Below, piece by piece: positions 8,160-59,149 of a stretch of 64,000 bases of DNA. The notes beneath the pieces are model-generated. The model saw only the letters and a program-made list of their open reading frames with translations. It did not search any database and was not told the origin of the DNA. The translations under genes were made by a program, and so were the position numbers. The stretch covers positions 82,338,458 to 82,402,457 of the forward strand of contig NC_057718.1 in assembly GCF_004010195.1 (NCBI RefSeq), given 5' to 3'. How positions within the stretch are numbered: position 1 is the first letter of the stretch; the number at the start of each line of letters is the position of its first letter. The stretch comes from Chiloscyllium plagiosum. Lineage: Eukaryota.

Positions 8160-9036
8160 GTAACTTTGGCATTAACTCTTAAGGAGTATAGAAATTTGGG
8201 ATATAAATATAACTTTGATAATGCCATTTATATTCAGAAAAAACTTAAATTTATAAGACAACATTTTTTTGACAAGCTAGTGTCAACTTCTGAGTGACAT
8301 TTTTGAGGTTGTTAAAATCCATCCTGTCATAGGCTTGAAGGGCCAAATAGAAAACTACTGTTTCTGTTTTCTGTTTCTAATTGCCTCACTATCACAGCTG
8401 CCATATCAGTGACTGGTTGCCACCAATTCCACCCACAAAAGTAGGACAAAAGTATATTAACCTCTATGGACATGACCATGACCTTCTGCACACTAAATTA
8501 ATGAAATTTATCAATCCATCAAAAATAAGCTAATATAAACCTGCCTCTCGCATCTCCATTTTAAAAACTTCCTCCTCTCAGGTTAAACCTGTACCCTCGA
8601 CTATTTAAGCCCAGACATTTGTGAACAAGATTCTGTGCCTCTCACTAGTTTTATATACCTCTATCAGATCACCCCTCAGCCTCTTACTGCATTTAATTAT
8701 TAGTATTTACAGCACCAAATTAGATCAATTTTTTGCTTCACAAGCCTCTTCCCATTCCTTTTCATCTGACTTTACAATCTTTCCTCCTATTCCCTTCTCC
8801 CTTCTGTTTATCTCACTTCACTTAATCTAACTGTGCCAGCATATTCAAGCAAAGGCTTGAATAAAGCAGGACAATGCCAACAGATCTCATGGGTCAAATG
8901 TACTGTTTCTGTGCTGCTAAATGCTATACAATGTAGATTGAGCAGCATTCCACTGTGGTTTAGCAATTTGACTGCCAGAACTGTCTGAAGTGGATATCTT
9001 TGGAATATGCATGCCCAGTTTAGGCCCTAATGAAGG

Positions 9037-9212
9037 GAGAAAGTGAGGACTGCAGATGCTGGAGATCAGAGTTGAGAATGTGGTACTGGAAAAGCGCACA
9101 GATCTGGCAGCAGCTGAGGAGCAGGAAAGTCAACGTTTCAGGCTTATGTCCGAAACGTTGATTCTCTTGCTCCTCTGCTGCCTGACCTGTGCTTTTTCAG
9201 CACCACACTCTT
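9037..9212. mobile_element. Palindromic PLE terminal-repeat mini-element
   Basis: Inverted arms join at aacgtttcaggcttatgtccgaaacgtt, so the hinge lies inside hammerhead helix II. Confidence 0.8.
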
Positions 9213-9864
9213 GAAGAGTTTCTAATGAAGCCTGGGTTTCCCACATCAGTTTGGAACTTTAGCACCTGTAGTCAAGGCTGTTTCAAGAGGAGAATTCTGA
9301 TATGCACTGTTTTAATGTGGGTCATAGAAATGGGCATAGGACATGCTGCTTTTTCATGAATATTCTATCATTCAAGTCTTAGTTATGGTAAATCTAACTT
9401 CTCTCCTGTTTGGTTCCATTGTGCTTGATTGACTGTTGCTAGGCAAAAACTATCTCCCTTCATTCTGAAATAAATTTATATGACCATTGAACTTTAAAGT
9501 TGAGATGTCTGTGGGGTGGGGTTTTGAGATTTCCACTTGTCTTTTAGCAGAACATCTTGACATCTCACTTGAATGGACTTATTCTAATTTTATGCTTGAC
9601 ACTCGGGTCATAATTTATAATATGCAAAATTCAATTCAAAGTGGCTAGAATGTGGAACTTGTTACCTCCTCAGGTGGTTGAGGAGCATAGACTGAATGCA
9701 GTTAAGATGGAAATGAGAGAAACAAGTGTTGGGGACACTTTAGATGTAATAATGAGAGGAGACTTGTGTCAAGCACAAAACTGACCCAAACCTGTTGGGT
9801 GCGCAGTCGTCTACTGTACCATACATGTTTCTTAAAGTAACCTTTTTTATTTTCCTTTGTGCAG

Positions 9865-12828: not shown

Positions 12829-14200
12829 GTAAGTCTGGATTATTTCAGTGCTAATTAAAAAATAATTGCAAACAATAACTTGGACGTAAGTTTAAAAGTT
12901 GCATGTTATCCATAGGGATTCACTATTGTTTTGTAGTGCTTTGCTTAAGGAAAAGGGTGCATCTGTCCCACTATTCTGGTAGCTGACAGGTGACCTATAA
13001 CAGAGCATTTGACTTGGAAGGAGTAGGCTATTTGGTCCTTCCAGTATGCTCCACAAGAGTTGTAAGTCTTAGCTCCATATCTATGATACCCTTGACCAAA
13101 CTAATCTGTCAAGCTACAAATATTGGATGATGAGATTTGCTTTTCTTGCCACAACCTTCTTAATGATTTTAGGAATTGATGTCAATATGTTGGCTGGTAC
13201 TTCAGTGTTACATAAAGGTGAGATCACAATGAGCAGATGATGGTTTGAATAATAACTTCAGATGAAGCAACTCCTTTGCTAGTTCACTTATTTTTGAATA
13301 ATGTTACTAAAAATCTCAAACTTTGATTGTATTAATCTGAATTTTCACAAGTATTGCTGTCATTGGAAAATCTCTACTTCATGAATTTTTCATTCGCTTA
13401 ACTGGGCAAACCAATTAAGTGATATGGTTTCTTGATTGATTTGAGAAATTTAGTTTTCCGGTTATTTATTCACATCCTCGCTGAGAGTCAACGAGCAGTT
13501 GTTGTAACATTGGAGTTAGTGAAATCCTCAAAGATGGCAAGAGTTAATTTACTGCTAATTTTTTTTTGCCATCTTTCACTTTGTAAGTTGCAGAGCAGTT
13601 ACTGAGAAATCCTTTAGTGAGCCTTCGTGGCTTGTGAAAATCAAAAAATGCAAATGAGTTATAAGTTGCAGGATGCAATGAGAATATTGAAGGGTTTAAA
13701 TGTTTTTGGTCTGATGCAGTAGTTTTGTAATCCCTGTTGAATCTGGACAGAACAATTTGTAGGAATAATAACCATGGTTACTGTAGTCTCCTGGACTTGA
13801 TTTCCATCTCCTGAGGTTTTTGCCTATTTGTGTCTGGGTTCTTATCTGTTTTCGCCTTTCCTGGGAGGTTCCTTTGCCTCCACATGGCTAGTGGGCTAAT
13901 GTGGTGCTTCAGGCATCTCAACAAATGGGGCAGGCATTTCTCTGTTATGCATGTCATTTTAAAAGGCTAAGCTTTGTTTCCTGACTCAAGGGAGGAAAAA
14001 GCTGAGGAACATGCAAAGTAATTGGAAAGAGCCAAGGAAGACCATGCGAAACGTCAGCTGCACTGAAGATGTGCCATGTCCATTTAGGGAAGGAGACCAT
14101 TTGGCCATCACATCTGCTGCAATCAATGAAGATCTGATGACACTAGTCCCATTTTCCAGCTCGAGGCCCATACCTGTGGAACCTATGGCAATGCAAGTGA

Positions 14201-14388
14201 GCGCAGCAGGTCAGGCAGCATCCAAGGAGCAGGACAATCGACGTTTCGGGCATAAGCCCTTCAGGAAACAGGGCTTATGCCCGAAGTGTCGACTCTCCTG
14301 TTCCTTGGATGCTGCCTGACCTGCTGTGCTTTTCCAGCAACACATTTTTCAGCTCTGATCTCCAGCATCTGCAGTCCTCACTTTCTCC
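14201..14388. mobile_element. Palindromic PLE terminal-repeat mini-element with a 12-bp TSD
   Basis: caatgcaagtga at 14189-14200 and 14389-14400. Inverted arms hinge at the hammerhead core (~14260-14270). Confidence 0.88.
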
Positions 14389-16447
14389 CAATGCAAGTGA
14401 ATATCTAGTTACTGAGGTGTGTTTTGATTAGAATACTGTAAATCTGGTTGCACAGGAACTTAGGAAGGAAAGGGAGAAGGAAACTGAGGCTTTATTTTTA
14501 AGAAAAGTAAAGGCCCTATTTCAGTAAAGGACTTTACTGAAATAAAGTCAGTTAAATGCAGGGTTCCAGCACACTGGCACAATATGACATAGGCTCTTCA
14601 GGAGTGAGACTGGGAAATGTAAATGGATCTAGCTCTCCACTGTCCAAATTTAAATTGTCTTGACTGAGGGATTTTTTTGTTATTCAGTAAATATTTTTAA
14701 GGGATATGGAACAAAAGTGTATCAATGGAGTAGTGAAACTGAAATGCTGTGATTTAAATGAATACTGGAACAGGTATAATGAGATGAGTAGCTGCTTCTC
14801 TTCCATCTGTGTCTATCCAGTGAGGTGTTTATGTATGTTTTATAATCATCAAACAAATTTCTTTTTTTGGTGTAACTCCATATTTTCTTTGCTACTGTCC
14901 ACATCTAATGCTTAATTTGAGCAAGAGTCCAAATTTAAAATCCTGAGGGCACAATCTCTTCCTTACTGAACCCTTAAACGTTTATGCCCAGTGTGGTGGT
15001 TCTCCTTACCACTTGCATTGTAATTAAAAGTCTCAATTTAAGCAAAGGAAATTCCAATGCTCTACATGTGAAAACCCATGTCCTAATGGCAACAGTTTTG
15101 AATTTATTTACTGAAGTGTACTGAACCAAACTGACGGGTGGAGGCATAGTTCATACTTGTACCATGAGTGCAGAGAAGTTCATTCATGATCCTTCACAGT
15201 TTCTGTTCCGGATGTTGCAATAGAGCTAATGCTAAACTGCCTATCTAGACCAGATTTGTACCCAGAATGACTAATTAGTTGCCAGTTTTTGCTAGTTACC
15301 AAATTTTTAACAGTTAATTCATGTGCAAGACTGGGTGAAAACGGCTGACCAAGTAGAACAAGAAAAGGACTTTCAGGAAATTTTATCTCGAGGTAAAGTG
15401 GTTCAGTTCCTTGATATGTCCCATGTGCAACTCATGCAGTTATATTGTATGGGTCCACAGGGGTATGTGAGCAGAGGCTTGCATTGAAGAAACAGTCCCT
15501 GCTAAAAAGACTGTGCAAAACCAAAAAAGCTCCTCCAATGGAGAAACCGGAGACTGTCAAATCTCATCTTTTCAGGATTTGGTCATCATCCGAGAGATGA
15601 GTGAGTGATAACAGCATAGTGGGTGTCTACATTAGTAAAACCTTCAACCAGGTTGAATAAAGTCAGAAACGATTGGATGTTATCTCAGCAGATCTGGTAT
15701 TATTGCCATTCAATCCTCTAGGTTCAGCCCTCTGAAATAAACTATTTGCCATGGAAACAGTAATTAAAACTTCTTTCCAGTGCAAAACAAATTCACGTGT
15801 ACATCACTGACAAAGCTACTGTTTATTACCCCGACTGTAGTTACGCAATAGAAGATGGTGGGTAACTTCAAAGTGCTACTGTCTGTGATGAAAGTGTTCC
15901 TACAATCTCTTAGAGGGAAATCTTGGAACTTCCTACTTACCACTCTCTCTCTTTTATTGATTTGTGTATGAATTGGACGTGGTACCATGCATCTGTTTTT
16001 GTTCTAGATGTAGTACGTGCATTTGAGGGGCCATTTAAATACCTTGATGAATTGCTGCAGTGTGTCCAATAGATGGTACACAATGCAGTCACTGTTCTTT
16101 TTGAAGGTTTGCCATCACGCAAACCAGCAAACGGGCTACACACAACAAAGAGAAACACTTCATCCACACTCTAACATATGGAGTGATTTTTAGGCTATTG
16201 CCTGAAGAGCAAATCAACCACCTCTGTCCTTGCTCCTACATCAGCTAACTACTCTTAACCATACCGATGATTTATTATTACTGAGCACTTATTACAGCTT
16301 TTTTTGATGGACAGTGGAATTTGAACTTAAAATTAGAGGTGTAAAATTCTGGTTTGAATTGACCTGATGGTTAAACAGGCTTATTAACAACAAATCCTTT
16401 TTTTAATGATTTATTTCTTGCTCTTTCCACGCCCCCACCATTCACAG

Positions 16448-16534
16448 AAAGTAGAAGGAAGAGTGTCAAGCGATGAAGACTTGAAGATGACAGAACTGTT
16501 AAAATATTATATGAGGGATATACAGGCAGCAAAG
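16448..16534 (+). CDS. SNX5: Sorting nexin 5-like coding exon, 87 nt
   Basis: ttcacag| and |gtaata. KVEGRVSSDEDLKMTELLKYYMRDIQAAK, containing the family motif RVSSDEDLK. Phase 0/0. Confidence 0.95.
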
Positions 16535-16782
16535 GTAATATAACTGAGGCATGTGACTTTTCAATATTGCCTCTGTTTGTAATTCTGGAAGCCATCCTAA
16601 ATTTCAGGATTTGTTTCTAATATTTGATGAACTAGTCTGTTCAGCCCTTGCCAGGTTTTCTGGCAGTTAAATAATGGTGCTATGATTTTGTTTTTTGTTA
16701 AAGTAAATAGGGACTATGATTGCTGTTTTTCCTCCCTGTGTGTATTTCCTTGTAATATGGATATTTTTGAGTTTGTTTTTAA

Positions 16783-17074
16783 AGATTAGATTCCCTACAG
16801 TGTGAAAAAGGCTCTTTCGCCCAACCAGTCCACACCAACCCCCTGAAGAGCAACCCACCCAGACCCACTTCCCTCTGACTAACACACCTAGCACTATGGG
16901 CAATTTATCATGGCCAATTCACCTGACCTGTACATCTTTGGACTGTGGGAGGAAACCCATGCAGACACTGGGAGAATGTGAAAACTCTACACAGACAGTC
17001 GCCCGAGGCTGGATTTGAACCCAAAACCCTGGTGCTGTGAGGCAGCAGTGCTAACTACTGAACCACCATGCTGC
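16783..17074 (-). mobile_element. HE1/V-SINE-type tRNA-derived SINE
   Basis: Minus strand has a tRNA-like head (ggtggttcagtagttagcactgctgcctcacag...gggttcaaatcc), a V-domain-like core and an aatctaatct tail. Confidence 0.85.
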
Positions 17075-17972
17075 TAAGATCATCTCGCAATTTTTAAATT
17101 AAATTGATCTTTATTGGAATGAACAAAAATACATTCAACAACTCATCCTTGTGCTTTCACCATAAGAGTTAGGAGCAGAAGTAGTCCTGGAGATATCAAG
17201 TCTGCTCAATCATTCAGCGAGATCATGGCTAATCTAATTATGCTCCATTCCACTTCCCTGTCTGTCTTCCCAAAACCCCTGATACCCTACTGACTTTAAA
17301 AATCTGCATAGCTCTTCCTTGAATAAACTTAATGTACTGACTTCGACTGCCCTCTGGCAAAGAACTTCACAGATGATCTTCCCTTAGAAGAAATTCCTCC
17401 TTTACCTGTTTTAAATGAATAATTCCTTTTTTGAGATTAGTGGTTTAGGGAGGGTCATTGAATATTTTCAACACCTGAGGTAAATTGACACCCTTAATAG
17501 TCAGGACTCAGTATCAGGGTATAGGTAGGAAAATAGAGTTGAGGTCACGAGCATCTTGAATAGTGGCGTAGGCTCGAGGAGCCATTTGGCTCCATTCCTT
17601 GTCCTAATGACTATATTCATATGAACCTTACAGCATTAGAATGGGGAATCATCATTATTATCTAAGTTTTTTGGAAGAATTATCCAGCTGTTCCTATTCC
17701 TCTACTATTTTCCTTTCACCGTATAAAATTTTTATTTTCAAGTTTTAATCCATTTTCTTTAGAGTTTAATCTGCTTCCACTACCCTTTACAATGGTGTAT
17801 TTCAATGCTGTATTTGGAAAGAGAAAATTTTAAAAATCCTAATTTCCATTCTGCTTCTTAACTAAATACTGATTCTTAGTCAAAGTCCTTTTTTTTTTGG
17901 ATTCTCTTCCTTAAGCTGACTTACTCTGCCAAAATTCCTAATAATCCCAGTGTTGCAATATGGCCCTTGTGA

Positions 17973-18206
17973 TAAGGATAACAGCAAATTACTGTAGATT
18001 TTGGAATCTGAAACCAAAACAGAAAATGCTGGAAAATCTCAGTAGGTCTGGCAGCATCTGTAAGGAGAGAAAAGAGCTGACGTTTCGAGTCTAACTAACC
18101 CTTTGTCATAGCTTTGACAAAGGGTCAGTTAGACTCGAAACGTCAGCTCTTTTCTCTCCTTACAAATGCTGCCAGACCTGCTGAGATTTTCCAGCATTTT
18201 CTCTTT
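17973..18206. mobile_element. Near-perfect palindromic PLE-derived mini-element with a 12-bp TSD
   Basis: tggcccttgtga at 17961-17972 and 18207-18218. About 95-bp inverted arms centred on 18111-18112 with few mismatches. Confidence 0.9.
18110..18148 (+). ncRNA. Minimal type I hammerhead ribozyme, U3-A8 core variant
   Basis: AGCT (helix I)-TTGACAA-A-GGGTC-agtta-GACTC-GAAA-CGTC-AGCT (helix I'). Predicted cleavage after C18144. Confidence 0.7.
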
Positions 18207-18459
18207 TGGCCCTTGTGACTAGTTTGGAAGCATTGCATCATATTTAAGAGCAATAGGACCATTTTTTTTTAATTTCATTCATAGCTACACAATATTTCTT
18301 CAACACATTGTTAACTATTTCCAGCTAGTGGATAGTCCTCAGGTTTTGTTTTTGTCGCAACTTAAGAGCATTTAAATGTTTCCCCTCAGAGTTGCTGCAT
18401 GTTCCAAGCGTAAAGACTGTAAAGTATTCTCCAAAAATGGGCTGCTTTTTCAACTTTAG

Positions 18460-18740
18460 CTTAGCTACTGGCAATCCTCTTAAAGATTAGAATTAGAAGT
18501 CATGGGTTCAAAACCCCTTTAGAAATTTAAATACCCTATCTAAATTTATACTTTAATGCTACATTGCTAAGAGATGCCTTCACAAGTAGACATAAAAGAT
18601 CCTATTTTGAAGAAGATTAAGTTAATTTTTCCCTGCCAGTCAGTATTTATCCTTAACTGAAATCACCACAGCAGATTATCTGGCCATTATCCTAGTTCTG
18701 TTGATGGCAATTTGCTGTGTGCAGTTTCTCTATTTTAAAA
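18460..18740 (+). mobile_element. Old Deu-domain SINE
   Basis: gggttcaaaaccc B-box-like motif; cagattatctggccattatc...tttgctgtgtgcag Deu-like core. Confidence 0.55.
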
Positions 18741-19252
18741 TTATAGATTTAAATAAAACTTATAGCATTCCTATTAAAGGGATTGGTCTGATTCCAAAGC
18801 TATCTGTGAAATTCAAACTATTGAATCCAGCAGTTTATCAAGTATTGTTTAAGTTTTCAGATTGGTAAACCAGGATTTCACAGGCAATATGAAGTGATCA
18901 GGCACCGTGGCCTCACTGCAAAGATTATCTATGGTGCATTGCATTTCATTATGGAGTCAACAGTGGTACTAGTATTCCAGATAAATTATGTAACAAAACA
19001 AAATTTAAACCAAAAGGGTTTTTGATGTAATTCCCTTCCTGGTATTTGAACATTCTAGTCTAACTCACATTAACCCAGATTTCAACGAGGCAGAATATTT
19101 CTCTCACATTTTAACTTCTAATTCCTCCGTAGATTGTGCCCTCTGTTCTGGATTCCTTTTAGTGTAGAGCTAGGCTACAAGGGACTTTTTCTCAGTGGGT
19201 AGTGGAAATCTAGACCTGTCTTGCAAATAGACATGCTGAATAAAGCATTGTG

Positions 19253-19377
19253 GAGAAAGTGAGGTCTGCAGATGCTGGAGATCAAAGTTGAAACTTTATT
19301 GCTGGAACAGCACAGCAGGTCAGGCAGCATCCAGGGAACAGGAGATTCGACGTTTCGGGCACAGGCCCTTCTTCAGG
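19253..19377 (-). mobile_element. Solo PLE terminal repeat with a ~13-bp TSD
   Basis: ataaagcattgtg at 19240-19252 and 19378-19390. The empty site is preserved in the adjacent tandem copy. Confidence 0.9.
19349..19376 (-). ncRNA. Minimal hammerhead ribozyme motif, intact core
   Basis: Minus strand reads CTGAAGA-A-GGGC-ctgt-GCCC-GAAA-CGTC, with the ACGT palindrome and a GUC cleavage triplet. Confidence 0.75.
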
Positions 19378-19507
19378 ATAAAGCATTGTGCCTAGGAGTT
19401 GGGAGGTCATGTTGCAGCTGTATAGGTTATTGCAAGGGACTTTTTCTCAGTGGGTAGTGGAAATCTAGACCTGTCTTGCAAATAGACATGCTGAATAAAG
19501 CATTGTG

Positions 19508-19890
19508 CCTAGGAGTTGGGAGGTCATGTTGCAGCTGTATAGGTTATTGGTTAAACCACTTTTGGAGTATTGCATGCAATTCTGGTCTCCTTCCTGTCGG
19601 AAGGATGTTGTGAAACTTGAAAGGGTTAAGAAAAGATTTACAAGGGTTGGAGGATTTGAGCTATAGGGAGAGGCCGAATAGGCTGGGGCTGTTCTCCCTG
19701 AAGCATGGGAGGCTGAGGGATGACCTTTTAGAGGTTTATAAAATAAGGAGTGGCATGGATAGGATAAACAGGTGGGGGAAGAGTCCAGAGCTAGAGGGCA
19801 TAGGTTTAGGGTGAGAGGAGAAAGATATTAGAGACCTATGTTGGGCGGAAGGGTATGTTTTTGTGCTGTACATCTCTCTGACTCTATAAC
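19508..19890 (+). mobile_element. CR1 3' fragment with internal deletions
   Basis: LEYCMQFWSP and LFSLKHGRLRDDLLEVYKI motifs; tail ctctctgactcta. Confidence 0.85.
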
Positions 19891-20117
19891 AATAATGAGC
19901 AAACCAAGGTAAATAGACTTAACCAATCCAACTTGATCTGATTAAATGGCAGAACAGTAAGGAGCTGAACTGCTGCCTTCTGTTTGAACAACATTGTAAA
20001 CTTGAGGATTACAAAGTTTAATTTAATGACCTGCAATTAGACCGTACAATTGGCACTGAATTCAAATAGCTGTTTTTTATTAAAGTATATTAATGCAGTA
20101 CTTTTCTATTAATCCAG

Positions 20118-20277
20118 GATCTTCTGTACAGGAGAGCAAGGGCTCTTGTTGATTATGAAAATGCCAACAAAGCCTTAGATAAGGCTCGAATGAAGGGTAA
20201 AGACGTGAAACAGGCAGAGCTCCAGCATCAAATGTGTGGTCAGAAATTTGAAAAGCTTTCAGAGTCTGCAAAGCAAG
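20118..20277 (+). CDS. SNX5: Sorting nexin 5-like coding exon, 160 nt
   Basis: aatccag| and |gtacaa. DLLYRRARALVDYENANKALDKARMKGKDVKQAELQHQMCGQKFEKLSESAKQ. Phase 0/1. Confidence 0.95.
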
Positions 20278-30130: not shown

Positions 30131-30225
30131 CTGTCACAGGGTCACTGGACCGGAAACGTTAACTCTACTTTCCCTCCACAGATGCTGCCAAGACCTGAGT
30201 TTCTCCAGCGATTTCTGTTTTATAT
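30131..30225 (+). mobile_element. Solo PLE terminal repeat with a degenerate hammerhead
   Basis: ggtcactggacc-ggaaacgtt then ccacagatgctgccaagacctgagtttctccagc. Same family as 184-310 and 913-1010. Confidence 0.7.
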
Positions 30226-41290: not shown

Positions 41291-41819
41291 CCTAAAATCT
41301 TACCAATGACTGAGGTAAGAAGTCAGACTAACCGGCTTGTAGTTTCTTATCTTCTGCTTCCCTTCTTTCCTAAACAGGAGGGGGTTATATTAGACATTTT
41401 CCTCTGGAAACCCTCCCTGACTCCATTGATTCCTGAAATATCACCACCAATGCCTCTACAATGTCTTCAGCTATTTCCTTCAGAAATCTGGGGTATAGTC
41501 CACTCATTCCAGGTGATTTATCCATCTTCATATGTTTCAGCTTTCCCAGTACCTTCTCCTTAGTGATGGCCACTGACTTCCCTGAAGTTCTGATATGCTG
41601 CTGGTATCTGGCACTGTGAAATCCAATGCAAAATCCCTATTCAGTCCCTCTGCCACTTCTTTGTCCTCAATTTCTGTTTCTCCAGCTTCATTTTTGTGCA
41701 GTTCAATGTCCACACTTATCTTTTAGATATCTAAAAAAACCTCTTGCAGTCTTCTTTCTCTCATGTTTCATCTTTTCCCCAGTATTGTTCTTTTCAGTTA
41801 TCTTCTCCTGGTTTTAAAG

Positions 41820-44430
41820 ACTTGGACTACTTTTCCCAGGATCACCTCTGGGTCCTATGGCCTACCTGCAGCCAGCCAGCATACCAGTTCTCCCTCCTCA
41901 TCCATCCAACCCCACAATGCACCCTTTGCCTCCACCTCTCCTTCTTCTGCCCCCCCCCCCCGACCTTGAACTGTCTGAGGTCGAATGGTCTATCCTCAGT
42001 AAAGGGCTCACGTTAGTGCTCCTCCGTCCCCACCTTAATGAATTCTGGACCCACCAAGACTTGGAGCTCTTCTTCCGCTGCCTCTACCTCCGCATCCATG
42101 CCTACTCCTTTGACAAAAACTCCAAACCTCCCTCTGAGGATCTCTTCGCTCACCTCCAACTTTCCTCCTCCACTTGGTCACCACCCACCGCCAGCCTCAT
42201 ACCCACCCTAGACTTCTTCATTGCAGATTGCTGACGTGACATCAACCACCTCAATTTCTCCACACTCCTCCAACCTCACCCCCTCTGAACATGCAGCATT
42301 CCACTCTCTCCGCACCAACCTCCTGTTCACCATCAAACCCGCTGACAAAGGTGGGGCAGTGGTAGTCTGGAGAATGGACCTCTATGTTGCAGGAGCTAAA
42401 CGTCAACTCTCCGACACCATGTCCTACCTCCCCCTTGCCCACAACCACACCATGGCACATCAGGTCAAAATCACTCGCACTGTCCGTGACCTCACTGCCT
42501 CTGATGATCTCCCCACCACTATCTCCAAACTCATAGTCCCTAGCCCCACACTGTCCGGTTCTACCTGCTCCCTAGATCCACAAGCCCAACTTCCCCGGCC
42601 GACACATTGTCTCCATATGCTCCTGCTCCCTGAATTCATCCTGTTCAACCTCGACTCCGTCCTCTCCCCCTTGGTCCAGACACTTCCCACCTACATCCAC
42701 GATACCAACCATGCCCATTTCTTCAGCAACTTCCAGTTCCCTGGCACCCAGCGCTTTATCTTCACTATGGACGTGCAGTCCTTATACACGTCCATACCCC
42801 ACAAGGATGGCCTTCAGGCCCTCCGCTTCTTTCTCTCCAGCAGACCCACCTAGTCCCCCTCCACCAATACCCTCCTCCGCCTCACTGAACTCGTCCTCAC
42901 CCTTAATCATTTTTTCTTTAACTTCTCCTATTTCCTCCAAATCCAGGGGTGGCCATGGGCACCCGGATAGGTCCCAGCCATGCCTACTTCTTTATCGGCT
43001 TTGCCAAACAGTCCCTCTTCAGCACCTACACAGGCACTGTGCCCCATCACCATTCCATTGATGACTGCATCGGTGCAGCATCTTGCACCCAGGCTGAATT
43101 GGAGCAGTTCATCGACTTCACCTACAACTTCCATCCCACCCTCAAATTCACTTTGTCCATCTCGGACACCTCCCTCCCTTTCTTGACCTCTCCATTTCCG
43201 TCTCTGACGACAGTCTCCAGACGGACATTTACTACAAACCCACAGACTCTCACAACTACCTGGACTACATCTCATCCCATCCAGTATCCTGCAAGAACTC
43301 CATCCTGTTTTCCCAATTCCTCCGCCTCTGCTGCATCTGCTCAGATGAAGAGACATTCCACTCCCAAGCATTCCAGATGTCCACCTATTTCAAACAATGT
43401 TCCTCCCCCCCTCTGTCATCCAGACAGCCCTCCACCGCGCCACCTCCATTCCCGTTTCACTGCTCTAAATCATCCCCCCAATGCAATAAAGACAAATCCC
43501 CCCTTGTCCTCACTTACCAACCCACCAGTCTCTGCATCCAACATATCATCCTGAAACAGGTCTGCTAACTCCAACTAGACCCCACCNNNNNNNNNNNNNN
43601 NNNNNNNNNNNNNNNNNNNNNNNNNNNNNNNNNNNNNNNNNNNNNNNNNNNNNNNNNNNNNNNNNNNNNNNNNNNNNNNNNNNNNNNNNNNNNNNNNNNN
43701 NNNNNNNNNNNNNNNNNNNNTTGTGCCACTCTCCCCACCAAACCCCCAGAACTCCCAAGTACCTCCCCCACAACCAGAAAAGATAGAAAACCTGCTGGCA
43801 CACCAACCCCCACCCCACTCCCACCTCCATCCAGGGCCCCAAACAGTCCTTCCAGGTGAGACAGACATTCACCTGTCTCTTTTCCAGCCTAGTTTACTGC
43901 ATCAGGTGCTCCCAATGTGGTAAACTTAGGGAATGGTTCACCGAGCATCTCAGCTGGGCCCGCAGTTACCAGACCTCCCAGTTACCACTCCTTTCAATTC
44001 CCCCAATCACTCCCCTTCCGACATGACCATCCTTGGCTTCCTCCATTGCCACAATGAACCAAACCACAAATTGGAGGAACACCACCTCATCCTCTGCCTG
44101 GGCAGCCTACAGCCCAGAGGACTCAACATTGAGTTCTCCAATTTCAAATACTCCCACTTCCTTTCTCCTACTCACTTCCCAGCTCCTCCCCCTCCCTTCC
44201 ACTACTCCCAGCCACCAACTGGATTCATTCCTCCGATCGACCAACCAGGTCATACCCCCTGCCTGTCTTCACCTATCCCCAATTCACTACCCTGCCCCCA
44301 ACAATCCCTTTATCTGCAGCTCCCCTTCTACCCACCCCGAATTCTGAAGACAAGTTAGACTCAAAACATCGACTTCTCCACCTCCTGATGCTGCCTGGCT
44401 TGCTGTGTTCTCCCAGCCTCCTGCTTGTCT
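41820..44430 (+). mobile_element. Penelope-like element (RT + GIY-YIG), frameshifted; assembly gap at 43587-43720
   Basis: LSKGL, TIKPADKGGAVVV, FTMDVQSLYTSIPH, AMGTRIGPS, IDD and KLEEHHLILCLGSLQPRGLNIEF motifs. Terminal repeat with a degenerate ctgaaga near 44344. Confidence 0.92.
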
Positions 44431-44901
44431 ACCAGTTCTCTGACTTCCCATCATCTTCACCACATTGTATGCCTTTTCTTTTGCTTTTATGCTTTTCCTG
44501 ACTTCTCGTGTCATCCATGGTTTCATCATCTTGCCCCTTAGTATCTTTCATCTTCCTTGGGATGAATTTCTGCTGTGCCTCCTGCATTACCCCCAGACAA
44601 CCCTGTATTTGCTGCTCCCCCATCTTCCCTGCTGGGGCTCCCTTCCAATCAACTCTGGCCAGCTCCTCCCTCTTGTCTTTATAGTTGCCTTAACTCAATT
44701 GTAATACCATTACGATCTGATTCCAACTTCTCCCTCTCAAGCTGCAGAATGCATTCTATCATATTATGGTCACTGCTCCCTAGGGGTTCCTTCACATTAA
44801 GCTTTCTAATCAAGTCTGCCTCATTACCCATCACCAAATCCAGAATTACCTGTTCTCTCAGGGGCTTGACCACGAGCAGCTCCAATAAACTATCTCATAG
44901 A

Positions 44902-49656: not shown

Positions 49657-49803
49657 TGAGAAAGTGAGGACTGCAGATGCTGGAGATCAAAGTCGAGAGT
49701 GTGGTGCTAGAAAAGCACAGCAGGTCAGGCAGCGACGAGGAGCAGGAGAATTGATGTTTCGGGCGGGAGCCTTGACGTTTCAGGCAGGAACCCTTCATCA
49801 GGA
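49657..49803 (-). mobile_element. Solo PLE terminal repeat with a partly duplicated hammerhead
   Basis: Core at 49774-49801 (minus strand CTGATGA-A-gggt-tcct-gcct-GAAACGTC) plus an extra helix II/GAAAC copy at 49753-49771. Confidence 0.8.
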
Positions 49804-52800
49804 AAAAATGTTGTTTCTCAGAGTTGCATAGACTGAGCTTATTGCAAGAATCACCAAAGACTGCTGGCATCTGATTGGCTGGCAGTTTCTGGCAGGGAAA
49901 GACTTCAGTGTGGGGTTCAGTGATACACCAAGAGGTCCCAACCACTGGTCAACTCTGAGTGTCTGACCGGTGCTTGATCCAATGGGATTTCTCACTGGTT
50001 GGGGTAATGTATTAGTCACCCCTGAAGGTGCTCACCATTATACCCAGAGCTGAGAACGCTAAATCAGCCATTACTTATTTTCAGTACATTCTCACAACAT
50101 TGCTACATGAGCACCCCTCCCCCTTTGTCTGTTAAGGATAAATTCCTTTGCAACATCAGATTTGAATTTTCAAGAAAAGAATCTGTAACTGGGAGGTTTT
50201 GACAATAGTGATCTTTGCTCATTTTGAAAAGCTACTTAAATAGTCAAGAGACCAGACTGCTGAATCCTGTAACAGGATGTGTATTTTCCCAATGCCAATG
50301 GGTTTATTCTTTAGCAACCGTTAATGAGCAGTATGTTTAACTCTGTTACTAACATAATTCTGACAGGGAATGTTCTTGTCCATTTATAGATGGAAATATC
50401 AGTACAGTTAGGCACAAACTTTAAGTGTTTTCATTTTGAATGCACTGCTCTGAATTACAGGAAATCTTTCTCCCAGACAGACTGGGAGTGCCCTTAAAAG
50501 TTTTTGACCTTAAATAATACTAACGTGAAAATTTGTTTCTTTGCTTTGATGCCTAAGTACATGTCAGACTAATTCTAGCTTCTGATTCTACATTTCTGAT
50601 TATGATTTCATTTACTGTTAAGCTCACAGTAAGGTAGGTTTGTTGGTGATGGGAGGGCTTATGCTGAATTTTTTCATTCGATGTCAGTATTGAACACCCT
50701 GGATTAGGACCAGTACAGGACAGATGTAGAGCTCAAAGCTCTCTTTGTGAAGTACAAACAAGGTGCTAACACGCTCATGTCAGTTGAATACCCCTGAACC
50801 TGCAATTTGCCCTGAATAAATGGTCCATTTTTATTATGTGTTATTGTAGGAATTTGATCAACCTTGCCTAAGACTCTGGCAGCTAACATCAACAATAAAG
50901 AAACTTGCATTTATTTAGTGCCCTTCACATAATTAATTAGCTCAAGGAATTTCACAACAGCGTTCTTCAGCTATCTGCCTGAAGGCGGATACAACCACAC
51001 CACAATGATGTTAACCACAGGAAAATGAGGAGGCAGGACCCAAACAGGGATCAGAACTCCTGTCAGCCATGTTAGGAGCCCTGTTTTGTTGGCATCAATC
51101 TAATCAACAGTAGTCATAATACAACCAAATCTATCCCAAGGAATGTTCTGGAAACATGTACTTTAATGCGATCTGGAGCCACGGTAGAAGCTCCAACGAT
51201 TGACTAGGAATCTCTCCTACTCCTAACGCCTACCATTGTGTGTGTGTGTGAGTCAGATTTACAGGTCAATACTCAACCTGTTTGATCACATGGTAAACAC
51301 ACCTTTCTTGGCCACAAAGTCCTGAGTAGAACCTGAGGTGTCTGCTTCAGTGCCACGCGACCACTTTGCCAGAGCCATGTAAGCGCTTGCTAAGACAGAC
51401 TGTTCCGATGTTGGTGAAATTCATCCATTTTCAGTGAGTGAAGTTCCAGCCCGCTGTCCATTTTCTGGAGTTCTCAGGTCAAACATTGATGAGAAGTCTG
51501 CTAGCGTAACAAAGGGATGCCTGATGCCAACCTGACAGAAGAAAAGCACAACACATATGCAGCCAGGAGTGAGACAGGGTTACCCCAGCCTTGCCTAGGA
51601 TCTCAGTAATAGAATCAGAACAGTAAAAATGAGGAATTAAAAACAATAAAAAGCACTGTTGCACAAAACAATCTTTTAAAGAAGTTTTTAGGGAAATTTT
51701 GTATCCTCATTCATTTTGGACATTTTGGGAATTAATGTGTTTCTAATGAAATACAGTAGCCTACAGAATATAAAAAAATAGTTAAGTTAATGCTTTGGAA
51801 ACTTCCACCTGACAGCAAATTTTCAGAGTTCAATGAATGCCTCCTGATTGCCCCCAACTATGACAGACTGCTGTTTAGCTGGAGTGGGAGTTCTAACTGA
51901 CTTGGGACTGAAGTTAGTTTTGTTGAGTTCCCAGTGGATGTGTATGCACAACGTTGAACTATTTCTTATCTCCAACTCAAGTTCTCATTGGTGAAATATT
52001 CTGTTCCTAACCCTATCTCCATGACTACAGCTGTGTTGAATCCCTTTGTTTTTATTTGCATCCTGAAAATTGTCACAAAGATGACAATGTTTTGGACTTT
52101 GAATGTTCTCTACTTTGAACATGTCAGCAATCTAATGATGTAGGGTCGGCACAATATTCCCTCTGATTTCTGAGTTATTTTTAAAATACCTTAAAATCAT
52201 ACACACTTAACTGCAAGGGAAGAGCAATTTCCTTCAGTTTATATGGAGCCAACTGTGACTCATATCCAGTACAATGCTAATAACCCGTCCGAGTAATACA
52301 CAAACAACTTTCGTTGATTAAAATGTTCTAACAGCATCCATATTTGGTATTAACAAAATGATTATCATTCCACTGACTGATTAGCACAGTAAAGTTCATG
52401 TTTTGATCCTTGGATTACAGAGTTCACTGTAGAACTCACTGTAATCCCAAGCTCCAAAAGGCGAGTTCACTTCATATCAATGGAAGTTATTGTGATCACA
52501 TATTTTTGAAGATTTAAGCCTGATTCAGTGCAGTTTATCCACCAAAAGAATGAGATAGGAGGAATGAGAAAAATTCATTCCATTAAAACCCTCACCTATG
52601 CTTGTGTTGCTTCCACATTCAACTGTTCTGTGCTCTCATGGTTGACTCCTATCTTTGGCTCTCAAACCTGAGGTTATGTTAAACACCACTGTCCATTCCT
52701 CTCCAACACTTAAATTGTAAGTCCTGCTTACAATTTCTATATTGGCTCCTGACACCAATACATCATATTTAAATTTCTTTGCAGAACTTGTGTACTACAA

Positions 52801-55800: not shown

Positions 55801-56201
55801 AGATAATTGTATCATCGATAGTCACAGGTGAGATGCCGGAAGACTGTAGGTTGCTGCCACTCTTTAAGAAAGGTAATAAGGACAAACCAGGGGACTATAG
55901 ACCAGTGAGCCTGATGTTGGTGGTGGGTAAGTTATTGGAGGGACTCCTGAGGGACAGGATGTACATGTATTTGAAAAGGCAAGGACTGATTAGGGATAGT
56001 CAACATGGCTTTGTGTGTGGAAATCATGTCTCACAAACGTGATTGAGTTTTTTGAAGAAGTAACAAAGAGGATTGATGAAGGTAAAGTGGTAGATGTGAT
56101 CTATGTGAACTTCAGTAAGGCATTCGACAAAGTCCATGGGACACTGGTTAGCAAGGTTAGATCTCATGGAATACAGGGAGAACTCGCCATTTGGATACAG
56201 A

Positions 56202-57756
56202 GTTGTGAGTGTGGTGCTGGAAAAACACAGCAGTTCAGGCAACATCTGAGGAGCAGAAGCGTCGACACTTCGGGCAAAAGTCCTTCATCAGGAATGAGGC
56301 TGTGAGCCAAGGGGGTGGTTAGATAAATGGGAGGAGGGTGGGGCTGGGGGAAAGGTAGCAGAGAGTGTGATAGGTAGGTGAGGGTAGGGGTGAAGGTGAT
56401 AGGATGGTGAGGAGACTGAAGCAGATAGGTGAGAAAGAAGATGGACAGGTAGGACAAGTCATGAGGGCAGTGCCTTCCAAACACATGGGAGGGGAAATTG
56501 TGGTCTTTAAAGAAGGAGGCCATCTGGTGTTTTCTGTGGTGGAACTGGTCCTCCTGGGAGCAGATGAGGCAGAGGCAGAGGAATTGGGAATAAGGGATAA
56601 GGACGACCGGTTCCTTGTTCCCAGGACGACCAGTTCTACCACAGCCTCCACCTCCATTGCATCTGCTCCCAGGACGACCAGTTCCACCACAGATCACACC
56701 AGATGGCCTCCTTCTTTAAAGACTGCAAATTCCCTTCCCAAGTGGTTGATGATGCCCTCCTGCGCATCTCATCCATTTCCCACACCTATGCCCTCAGACC
56801 CCACTCCCTCCAACTGCAACAAGGACAAAACCCCCCTGGTCGTCACCTTCCATCCCATCTATCTCTGTATACATCGCATCATGCTCCGCCATTTCCGCCA
56901 CCTACAAACAGATCCCACCACCAGAGATATATTTTCCTCCCCACCCCATCCACTTTCTGCAAAGACCATTCCCCCTGCGACTCCCTTGTCAGGTCCATGC
57001 ACCCCCCCAAACCAGCCTCCCCTACTGGCACTTTCCTCTGCCACCACAGGAATTGCAAAACCTGTGCCCTCACCTTGCCCCTCACCTCTGTCCAAGGCCC
57101 CAAAATGCCTTCCACATCCACCAGGGTTTCACCTGCACTTCCACGCATGTCATTTATTGTATCCATTGCTCCCGATGCAGTCTCCTCTACACTGAGGAGA
57201 CTGGACGCCTACTCGCAGAGCACTTCAGAGAACATCTCAGGGACACCTGCACCAATCAACCCCACTGCCCCTTGGCTAAACACTTCAACTCCCCCTCCCA
57301 CTCTGCCGAGGACATGCAGGTCCTGGGCCTGCTCCATCGCCACTCCCTAACCACCTGATGCCTGGAGGAAGAACATCTCATCTTCCGCCTTTGGACCCTC
57401 CAATCCCAGCATCAATGTGGATTTCACCAGTTTTTTCATTTCCCCTCCCCCTTATCCCCGATCCAACCTTCCAACTTGGTAGCCCCCCATGACATGTCCT
57501 ACCTGTCCATTTTCCTTCTCACCTATCCGCTCCACCCTCCTCTCTGACCTATTACCATTACCCACCCTCCATCTACCTATCGCATTCCCAGCTACCTCAT
57601 CCCCCCCAGCCCCACCCTACTCCCATTTATCTCACCATCCCACGGCTCACAGCCTCATTCCTGATGAAGGGCTTTTGCCTGAAACATTGATTCTCCTGCT
57701 CCTCGGATGCTGCCTGACCTGCTGTGCTTTTCCAGCATCTGCAGTCCTCATTTTCA
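56202..57756 (+). mobile_element. Penelope-like element with inverted termini and a 15-bp TSD, inserted in the CR1 RT
   Basis: ccatttggatacaga at 56187-56201 and 57757-57771. GIY-YIG VIYCIHCSRCSLLYTEETGRLLAEHFREH. 56202-56475 is an inverted copy of the 3' end. Confidence 0.93.
57657..57692 (+). ncRNA. Minimal hammerhead ribozyme motif in the PLE 3' terminal repeat
   Basis: attc-CTGATGA-A-GGGC-tttt-GCCT-GAAA-CATT-gatt. Directly downstream of the GIY-YIG region on the same strand. Confidence 0.7.
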
Positions 57757-59149
57757 CCATTTGGATACAGAACTGGTTCAAAGGTAGAAGACAGAGGGTG
57801 GAGGGATGCTTTTCAGATTGGAGGCCTGTGACCAGTGGAGTACCACAAGGATTGGTGTTGAGTCAACTACTTTTCGTCATTTATAAAAATGATTTGGATG
57901 TGAACATAGGAGGTACAGTTAGTAAGTTTGCAGATGACACCAGAAATGGAGGTGTAGTGGACAGCGAAGTAGGTTAACTCAGATTACAATGAGATCTTGA
58001 TCAGATGGACCACTGGGCTGAGGAGTGGCAGATGGAGTTTAATTTAGATAAATGTGAGGTGCTGTATTTTGGGAAAGTCAGTTTAGCAGGACTTATACAC
58101 TTAATGGTAAGGTCCTAGGGAGTGAATAAAGGGACCTTGGAGTGCAGGTTCATAGGTCCTTGAAAGTAGAGTCGCAGGTAGATAGGATAGTGAAGAAGGC
58201 GTTTGGTATGCTTTCCTTTATTAGTCAGAGTATTGAGTATAGGTCTTGGGAGGTCACATTGCAGCTGTAGAGGAGATTGGTTAGGTCACTTTTGGAATAT
58301 TGCGTGCAATTCTGGTCTCCTTCCTATTGGAAGGATGTTGTGAAACTTAAAAGGACGTTCAGAAAAGATTTACAAGGATGTTGCCAAGGTTGGAGGATTT
58401 GAGCTATAGGGAGAGGCTGAATAAGCTGGGACTGTTTTCTCTGAAGCATCAGAGGCTAAGGGATGACCTTATAGAGGTTTATAAAATCATGAGGAGCATG
58501 GATTGGATAAATAGACAAAGTGTTTTCCCTGGTGTCGGGGAGTCCAGAACTAGAGAGCATAGGTTTAAGATGAGAGGGGAAAGATATAAAAGAGACCTAA
58601 GGGGTAACTTTTTCATATAGGGGCTGGTATGTGTATGGAATGAGCTTCCAGAGGAAGTGGTGGAGATTGGTACAATTGCGACTTTTAAAAAGCATCTAAA
58701 TGGGTATATGCATAGGAAGTGTTTAGAGGGATATGGACCAAGTGCTGGCAAATGGGACTTGATTAGGTTGGAATACCTGGTTGGTATGGATGAGTTGGAC
58801 TGAAGGCTCTGTTTCCGTGCTGTACATCTCTGTGACTCTACCAACTTCCCCGTTTGTGGAAACAACGTTTGCTTATCTATTCTATCAAATACCCTCAAAT
58901 TTTCTCCTAAATCTCTCTTTCATGTACTCTTCTGAGGAGAGTATTGCCATATGCTAGATTTCATTGCTTCATTATCACAATGCATATTTTTATTGTTCAC
59001 TTTTATGGCTTGAAGTCATTTTGTGTTGTCACTGTGCCAGTGGCTAGGAAGAGCTGTATTCCCCATTTGTGGAGAACATTTTCCATCATGTTAGGCTTTC
59101 GCTGACTTTGGATAAAACAAATTGTCAGTATAAAAAGTAACAAAGGAGG

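Follow-up and report, generated by a model that had tools for sequence, protein, structure and literature searches.

Minimal hammerhead ribozymes (min-HHRs) with a U3-A8 core have been described in Penelope-like elements (PLEs), with ~1,300 of them coming from the Cercyon PLEs of Schistosoma mansoni (Cervera and de la Pena, 2014, PMC4209133). These motifs have an extra base after position 9 and a short helix I, show low activity even as dimers and occur in opposite-strand pairs; a min-HHR needs a partner on the same strand to build helix III, and the alignment, in its accessible part, includes no shark sequence (PMC4209133). At the DNA level, PLE insertions comprise inverted 5'-truncated copies, junction palindromes, one-sided tails of 30-40 bp and target duplications (PMC3846280, PMC8557442). 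With purified PLE protein, both target strands undergo cutting and extension, and reverse transcription sets out from two internal starts that define the tail (PMC11167929). The PLE ribozyme cleaves only with the PLE protein present, and ribozyme mutants were without effect on PLE insertion in vitro, so that cleavage is not needed for it (PMC11167929). Self-priming on an antisense template has been proposed as an alternative route to head-to-head palindromes (PMC3846280). For animal non-LTR retrozymes, a 2026 preprint sampled one chondrichthyan (10.64898/2026.07.22.740005).

The element analysed here lies in a window of 64,000 nucleotides (the whole stretch of DNA analysed) from Chiloscyllium plagiosum, within an intron of an SNX5-like gene that spans 16535-20117. 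This agrees with the location given in an earlier reading of the sequence alone (the sequence-only reading), as the flanking exons on the + strand match human SNX5, which was the only solved-structure match (both matches of each exon were SNX5 chains); the right-arm hammerhead motif is therefore sense in the pre-mRNA. A Pfam search with three exon frames of the gene gave no match. The features of the locus are:

16448..16534, + strand: coding exon (SNX5-like) lying upstream of the host intron, with an approximate start (phmmer, human SNX5 residues 276-306, E 2e-9; GT donor at 16535)
17961..17976, + strand: left target-site duplication, of which 12 bp are exact; its full length is likely 16 bp, both 17973 and 17974 having been substituted later
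17977..18013, - strand: 3' tail, on one side only; a few filler bases, then family sequence from ~17981, with a rise in depth
18014..18111, - strand: left arm, a copy of the PLE end (pLTR), with four private changes inside the palindrome as judged by the majority letters of aligned runs
18075..18113, - strand: left-arm minimal hammerhead motif with A3 (private change, predicted dead) and A8
18110..18113, no strand: central self-complementary 4-mer common to both arms, which is the 5' strand of helix I
18110..18148, + strand: right-arm type I hammerhead of the minimal kind, carrying a U3-A8 core and predicted to cleave between 18144 and 18145; agrees with the min-HHR consensus (PMC4209133)
18112..18209, + strand: right arm, an inverted copy without tail; its final 3 bases overlap the target duplication
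18207..18222, + strand: right target-site duplication, 16 bp, from direct-repeat comparison
20118..20276, + strand: coding exon (SNX5-like) lying downstream of the host intron, with an approximate end (phmmer, human SNX5 residues 305-359, E 8e-20; AG acceptor ends at 20117)

The two arms (18014-18111 and 18112-18209) are 98 nt long each, 95% complementary and joined with zero spacer; their alignment mismatches at five places. The near-perfect palindrome of ~190 bp proposed earlier is thus real, with a corrected length of 196 bp and, in addition, a tail on its left. The whole element folds with -180.3 kcal/mol (z = -26), and none of 200 shuffles folded equally well. It measures only ~230 bp in total and has no ORF between the repeats; its inverted repeat and the target duplication are the only repeats detected in 17500-18700. 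On the left side ~33-37 extra bases form the 3' tail of the element, which the right side lacks, and the last three bases of the arm are identical to the first three of the target.

Four public runs, chosen from 24 listed, were aligned to 17790-18136 at 85% likeness. At the outer end of the tail the summed depth of run X1, which is not a copy number, rises from 6 (bin 17958-17969) to 39,210 (bin 17982-17993). One contig of organism B (17790-18014) crosses from the unique flank into the element, so the same left junction is present there and the insertion is older than the separation of the two labelled organisms; the evidence for this sharing is the left junction in that single contig. The contig also matches the right copy of the target duplication at 17973 and 17974, and a contig of organism A does so at 17974. 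An exact direct repeat of 12 bp (17961-17972 and 18207-18218) is present as first reported, and the letters of organism B extend the flank match to 16 bp, so that the duplication is likely 16 bp long, with two later changes in the window copy. Compared with the read majority, the copy has deviating letters at 9 of 131 positions on the left side and at 1 of 98 in the right arm (~4%). It is younger than the other relics in the window, yet no fresh insertion, and calling it young, given the junction in a second species, was an overstatement.

The hammerhead in the right arm was found by its numbering exactly as first described, with U3, A8 and a helix I of four Watson-Crick pairs out of four. Its core reads U3 U4 G5 A6 C7 A8 A9, G12 A13 A14 A15.1 and U16.1 C17 (U3 at 18114, A8 at 18119, C17 at 18144), with one extra base after position 9 (A at 18121). 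Helix II has all five of its base pairs, one of them G-U, is closed by G10.1-C11.1 and is followed by GAAA; a helix III loop is absent, and 18140-18143 (ACGU) is self-complementary and palindromic. Both core boxes (positions 3-9 and 12-15.1), an N-U-H site and a Watson-Crick pair between positions 3 and 8 are thus present in the right arm. On the minus strand, the left-arm motif combines A8 with A3, as had been noted and as the comparison of the arms bears out, and departs from the min-HHR core by this A3. Judged by the aligned runs, A3 is a private change; it could alternatively be a letter of the junction and not a point mutation.

Folding predictions for the isolated 39-nt motif gave helix II with p 0.99 and a mostly formed helix I, and the core was predicted to mispair with the cleavage triplet (G5-C7 with G16.2-C17, p ~0.95). 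For two strands, the predicted dimer structure of minimum energy differed from the double-hammerhead fold. At the gathering threshold, Rfam gave no match in the window, hammerhead and miRNA families included; below threshold only generic hairpin matches were obtained, and those to miRNA families reflect merely the long hairpin.

In most respects the right-arm motif resembles the Cercyon min-HHRs. It shares with them the minimal type I form, U3-A8, the extra base between positions 9 and 10.1, G10.1-C11.1, the short helix I, the loopless palindromic 15.2-16.2 region, and occurrence mostly as scattered truncated pieces and as opposite-strand pairs; it differs in its cartilaginous-fish host, a helix II of 5 bp and C at position 7 (PMC4209133). 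It is nearer to the C3-G8 motif of the Acropora digitifera Neptune element (Fig. S3 of that paper) than to the Schistosoma motifs, and we infer from this closer likeness that the U3-A8 swap is likely convergent with that of Schistosoma. The rarity first ascribed to U3-A8 was thus exaggerated, the variant having been published for PLE minimal hammerheads (PMC4209133). The same covariation of positions 3 and 8 is found in natural U3-A8 hammerheads (Perreault et al., 2011, PMC3088659), compared with which the present one is a minimal motif of the dimer type in a vertebrate repeat.

As an insertion, the element resembles the inverted-pLTR units known from PLEs with an endonuclease (Arkhipova et al., 2013, PMC3846280; Craig et al., 2021, PMC8557442) in its head-to-head 5'-truncated copy, junction palindrome, tail at one end and target-site duplication. 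It differs from them in the missing ORF between the repeats, its ~230 bp and a duplication of ~16 bp, as against 8-10 bp in rotifer examples (PMC3846280, PMC8557442). With animal non-LTR retrozymes it shares the non-coding nature, a type I hammerhead and kinship to PLE pLTRs (10.64898/2026.07.22.740005). Unlike these direct tandem repeats with at least two same-strand ribozymes, it is inverted and has one motif per strand; no direct tandem repeats with same-strand hammerheads were found in 17500-18700.

The relation to PLEs was followed through other relics in the window. The motif and the block downstream of it align with many of them, including ends at 44.4 kb and 57.7 kb that follow decayed ORFs matching RT/HTH/GIY-YIG proteins. 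A frame at 42.2 kb gave 77 protein matches, most of them with RT and PF26215 and several with GIY-YIG, the best being to a ray and a bamboo shark. As a lead, GIY-YIG clusters were matched at 0.95 by the frame that precedes the copy at 57.7 kb; Pfam returned nothing relevant for seven PLE relic frames. Going by these protein matches, the ORF relics have the PLE architecture, and they point to a cartilaginous-fish host. The terminal repeat of the SNX5 element is homologous to the 3' end of an RT and GIY-YIG ORF at the level of the family, not of the exact subfamily, and its head-to-head inverted copy, one-end tail and target duplication are those of an endonuclease-bearing PLE. This link rests on relatives that are 70-85% alike, and no autonomous PLE with the exact U3-A8 end was seen in the window. 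Motif scans of two viral, two metagenome and one prokaryote collection gave no match.

Several of the relics deserve mention in their own right. At 41800-44450 (+ strand) lies a decayed, nearly full PLE with RT, HTH-like and endonuclease frames and a C3-G8 hammerhead relic at its end, whose helix II loop region is similar to that of the SNX5 element; this decayed PLE accounts for the strongly negative GC skew seen at 40-48 kb. A longer inverted PLE insertion (56200-57760) has two 3' ends facing outward and inner inverted arms of 104 nt (85%), and sits in a LINE-like RT remnant. On the minus strand, a hammerhead relic lies at 49705-49810, and after it comes a short direct duplication of the relic's 3' half. 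Two further head-to-head stubs were observed. One, in the same gene at 14191-14400, has 61-nt arms (90%) of a C3-G8-type family, a flanking direct repeat of ~10-11 bp, a tail only on the right and a hammerhead core broken at the centre; the other, at 9035-9215, has its centre inside helix II, with short microhomology.

Taken together, we assign a probability of roughly 0.78 to the reading that the element is a head-to-head stub of a PLE end, made of two copies of the hammerhead-bearing repeat end, likely left by a Penelope-like retrotransposon, with an inherited U3-A8 core that is predicted to be masked and inert at this site. Core variant and insertion form have both been published, and the element is a further example of a known thing. 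A literature search, mostly outside subscription journals, found no paper on a shark U3-A8 motif. The locus adds a very abundant vertebrate subfamily with U3-A8 that shares its genome with C3-G8 relatives, and the two together offer a handy natural comparison for the question if PLE hammerheads must cleave in vivo. Its significance is modest.

In the aligned runs, 18109 and 18104 (positions 3 and 8 of the minus-strand motif) were scored. U was found at position 3 in 18,263 of 20,248 depth (90%) over 101 contigs for DNA of organism A, in 6,126 of 10,907 (56%, the other 44% being not U) over 85 contigs for DNA of organism B and in 1,108 of 1,172 (95%) over 22 contigs for organism D; these depths differ from copy numbers, and the shares of U3 may be inflated as C3-G8 records would be more prone to clipping close to where the aligned stretch ends. 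In organism A, the raw RNA reads gave U in all 27 cases (~23 starts). Position 8 does not appear among the differences listed, besides which 11 further ones exist. On these alignments, U3-A8 is the state of an abundant subfamily in at least three organisms, as the sequence-only reading had expected of a subfamily consensus.

That reading further took the double change as a sign of selection for catalysis, which would be plausible in the source lineage, and U3-A8 as a viable swap. U3-A8 occurs naturally, and its in vitro activity is cited from earlier work (PMC3088659). A complete scan of double mutants in a type III hammerhead found activity rescued by the G3-C8 swap alone, the other doubles of this region being low (PMC9901934). 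Active in one setting and not rescued in the other, U3-A8 depends on context for its activity. In favour of selection, the two paired positions are the only ones changed among 13 in the core, and the swap recurs in unrelated lineages; against it stand that a single fixation event is involved and that insertion in vitro proceeds without need for cleavage (PMC11167929). Two random changes among these positions would hit the 3/8 pair with a chance of 1 in 78, which becomes 1 in 12 where G8A was forced by CpG decay at C7-G8. U3-A8 would likely have arisen in the source lineage when CpG decay removed G8 and C3 then changed to U in compensation. We lean towards the view that it cleaved usefully there.

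The strongest competitor grants the same origin and holds that the U3-A8 core is dead or nearly so and spread as a passenger, the pair having come about by chance through CpG decay and a further transition. The family does show CpG decay (run X1: 18081 C>T 19%, 18082 G>A 13%), the figure of 1 in 12 precedes any transition bias, the inserted copies cross the cleavage site, so that their template was uncut, and both the dispensability of the ribozyme in vitro (PMC11167929) and the low activity of the other double mutants (PMC9901934) fit a dead core. It explains less well that the other core positions and both helices of the right-arm motif are all intact, that U3 stayed the subfamily majority in three organisms and that the swap recurs in unrelated lineages (PMC4209133, PMC3088659). 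We consider it quite possible, if not the probable course of events. A more ambitious account, in which a vertebrate PLE lineage lost G8 by CpG decay, regained cleavage by C3-to-U and was amplified to high copy in an independent repeat of the Schistosoma swap, with the self-complementary helix I strand marking the template's 5' end and driving head-to-head joining of cDNAs, is offered as a tentative and, as a whole, rather doubtful proposal. If true, it would be natural evidence that hammerhead cleavage is selected in the PLE cycle in vivo, despite being dispensable in vitro.

For the head-to-head stub itself, the following course is envisaged. PLE protein would nick both target strands ~16 bp apart, and each nicked 3' end would prime reverse transcription on uncleaved subfamily RNA, one in the tail and the other ~37 nt further in, at the 3-base match to the target. 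Both cDNAs would run to the 5' strand of helix I and join through the self-complementary 4-mer, which would yield a palindrome without spacer. As both arms span the cleavage site, the template was uncut or re-ligated. The mirror half would likely be remade at each insertion, and cutting by the motif would, within the source element, require a dimer of same-strand copies.

Alternatively, the palindrome itself could be the mobile unit, MITE-like or retrozyme-like and copied whole, for which the clean target duplication around the entire palindrome, the zero spacer and the full length of both arms up to the same 4-mer would be natural. A fixed unit is at odds with the joints seen in other copies, where 11 of the 15 listed, out of a total of 37, lead from left arms of many lengths, ending at 17999-18077, to nearly the same start at 18110-18115; in these joints the short side has only 21-26 letters, and detectable right arms are those starting within the 25 bases given. 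The three palindromes in the SNX5-like gene have three different centres, the ends of the element are asymmetric with a tail on one side, and retrozymes are direct tandem repeats (10.64898/2026.07.22.740005). Copying as a whole is accordingly improbable.

Two further ideas were set aside. Copies beginning at the cleavage site are fitted by a single listed joint (18077 to 18115), which a 4-base microhomology also explains, and contigs cannot show ends. A single template switch that perfected a local 11-base palindrome and made both changes was rejected, as the changes lie on opposite arms of the small palindrome.

For SNX5 pre-mRNA, the prediction is that a 98-bp hairpin locks up the inherited PLE-end copy. 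The pair probabilities of helices I and II were 0.000 with 25 left-arm bases, with the whole element and in every transcription prefix tested, in line with the masking of the ribozyme foreseen earlier. Given this masking and the lack, within the element, of a partner on the same strand, the one copy in SNX5 is, on these folding predictions, most likely inert. Incidental editing of such a hairpin is likely on general grounds and would not imply function.

Whether the host has kept the hairpin as an intronic dsRNA element of SNX5, as an ADAR substrate or splicing modulator, was considered in the light of the same fold. The predicted 98-bp hairpin in sense pre-mRNA and an insertion common to two species would suit such a role. 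None of the five arm differences is compensated, however, the copy has drifted ~4% from the read majority, and similar hairpins are common, with 5 inverted pairs of at least 30 nt in the 64 kb. Among 320 aligned RNA reads none was 99% alike, with depth 0 on the unique flank of the element. In the family RNA, A>G and T>C were found at 10 places each, compared with 3-4 in DNA; G>A and C>T were also raised, and as A>G and T>C rose in the same mate orientation together with other types of change, the pattern does not fit editing. We therefore regard retention by the host as very unlikely. At 18088, in helix II, a change occurs in 12 of 32 RNA reads of one mate orientation and is absent from the DNA contigs, which likely reflects one expressed copy elsewhere.

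The readable cores of other relics in the window, from 14 hand-picked regions among the relatives found of which 13 were read, had C3 in 11 of 11 and G8 in 8 of 11; these cores are those of older, distinct subfamilies. The notion that this single copy acquired U3 and A8 as private mutations, to which such a survey might seem to lend weight, is hardly credible, being refuted by A8 in both arms and by U3 being the prevailing letter across 85 to 101 contigs in each DNA run. Among the window relics, helix I was paired in 35 of 52 cells (weak) and helix II in 34 of 39 (better), the weaker pairing being expected for decayed copies. One relic (30132-30221, + strand) has C3, C7 and A8, possibly a CpG-decayed core, and may resemble an intermediate toward U3-A8 or reflect simple decay.
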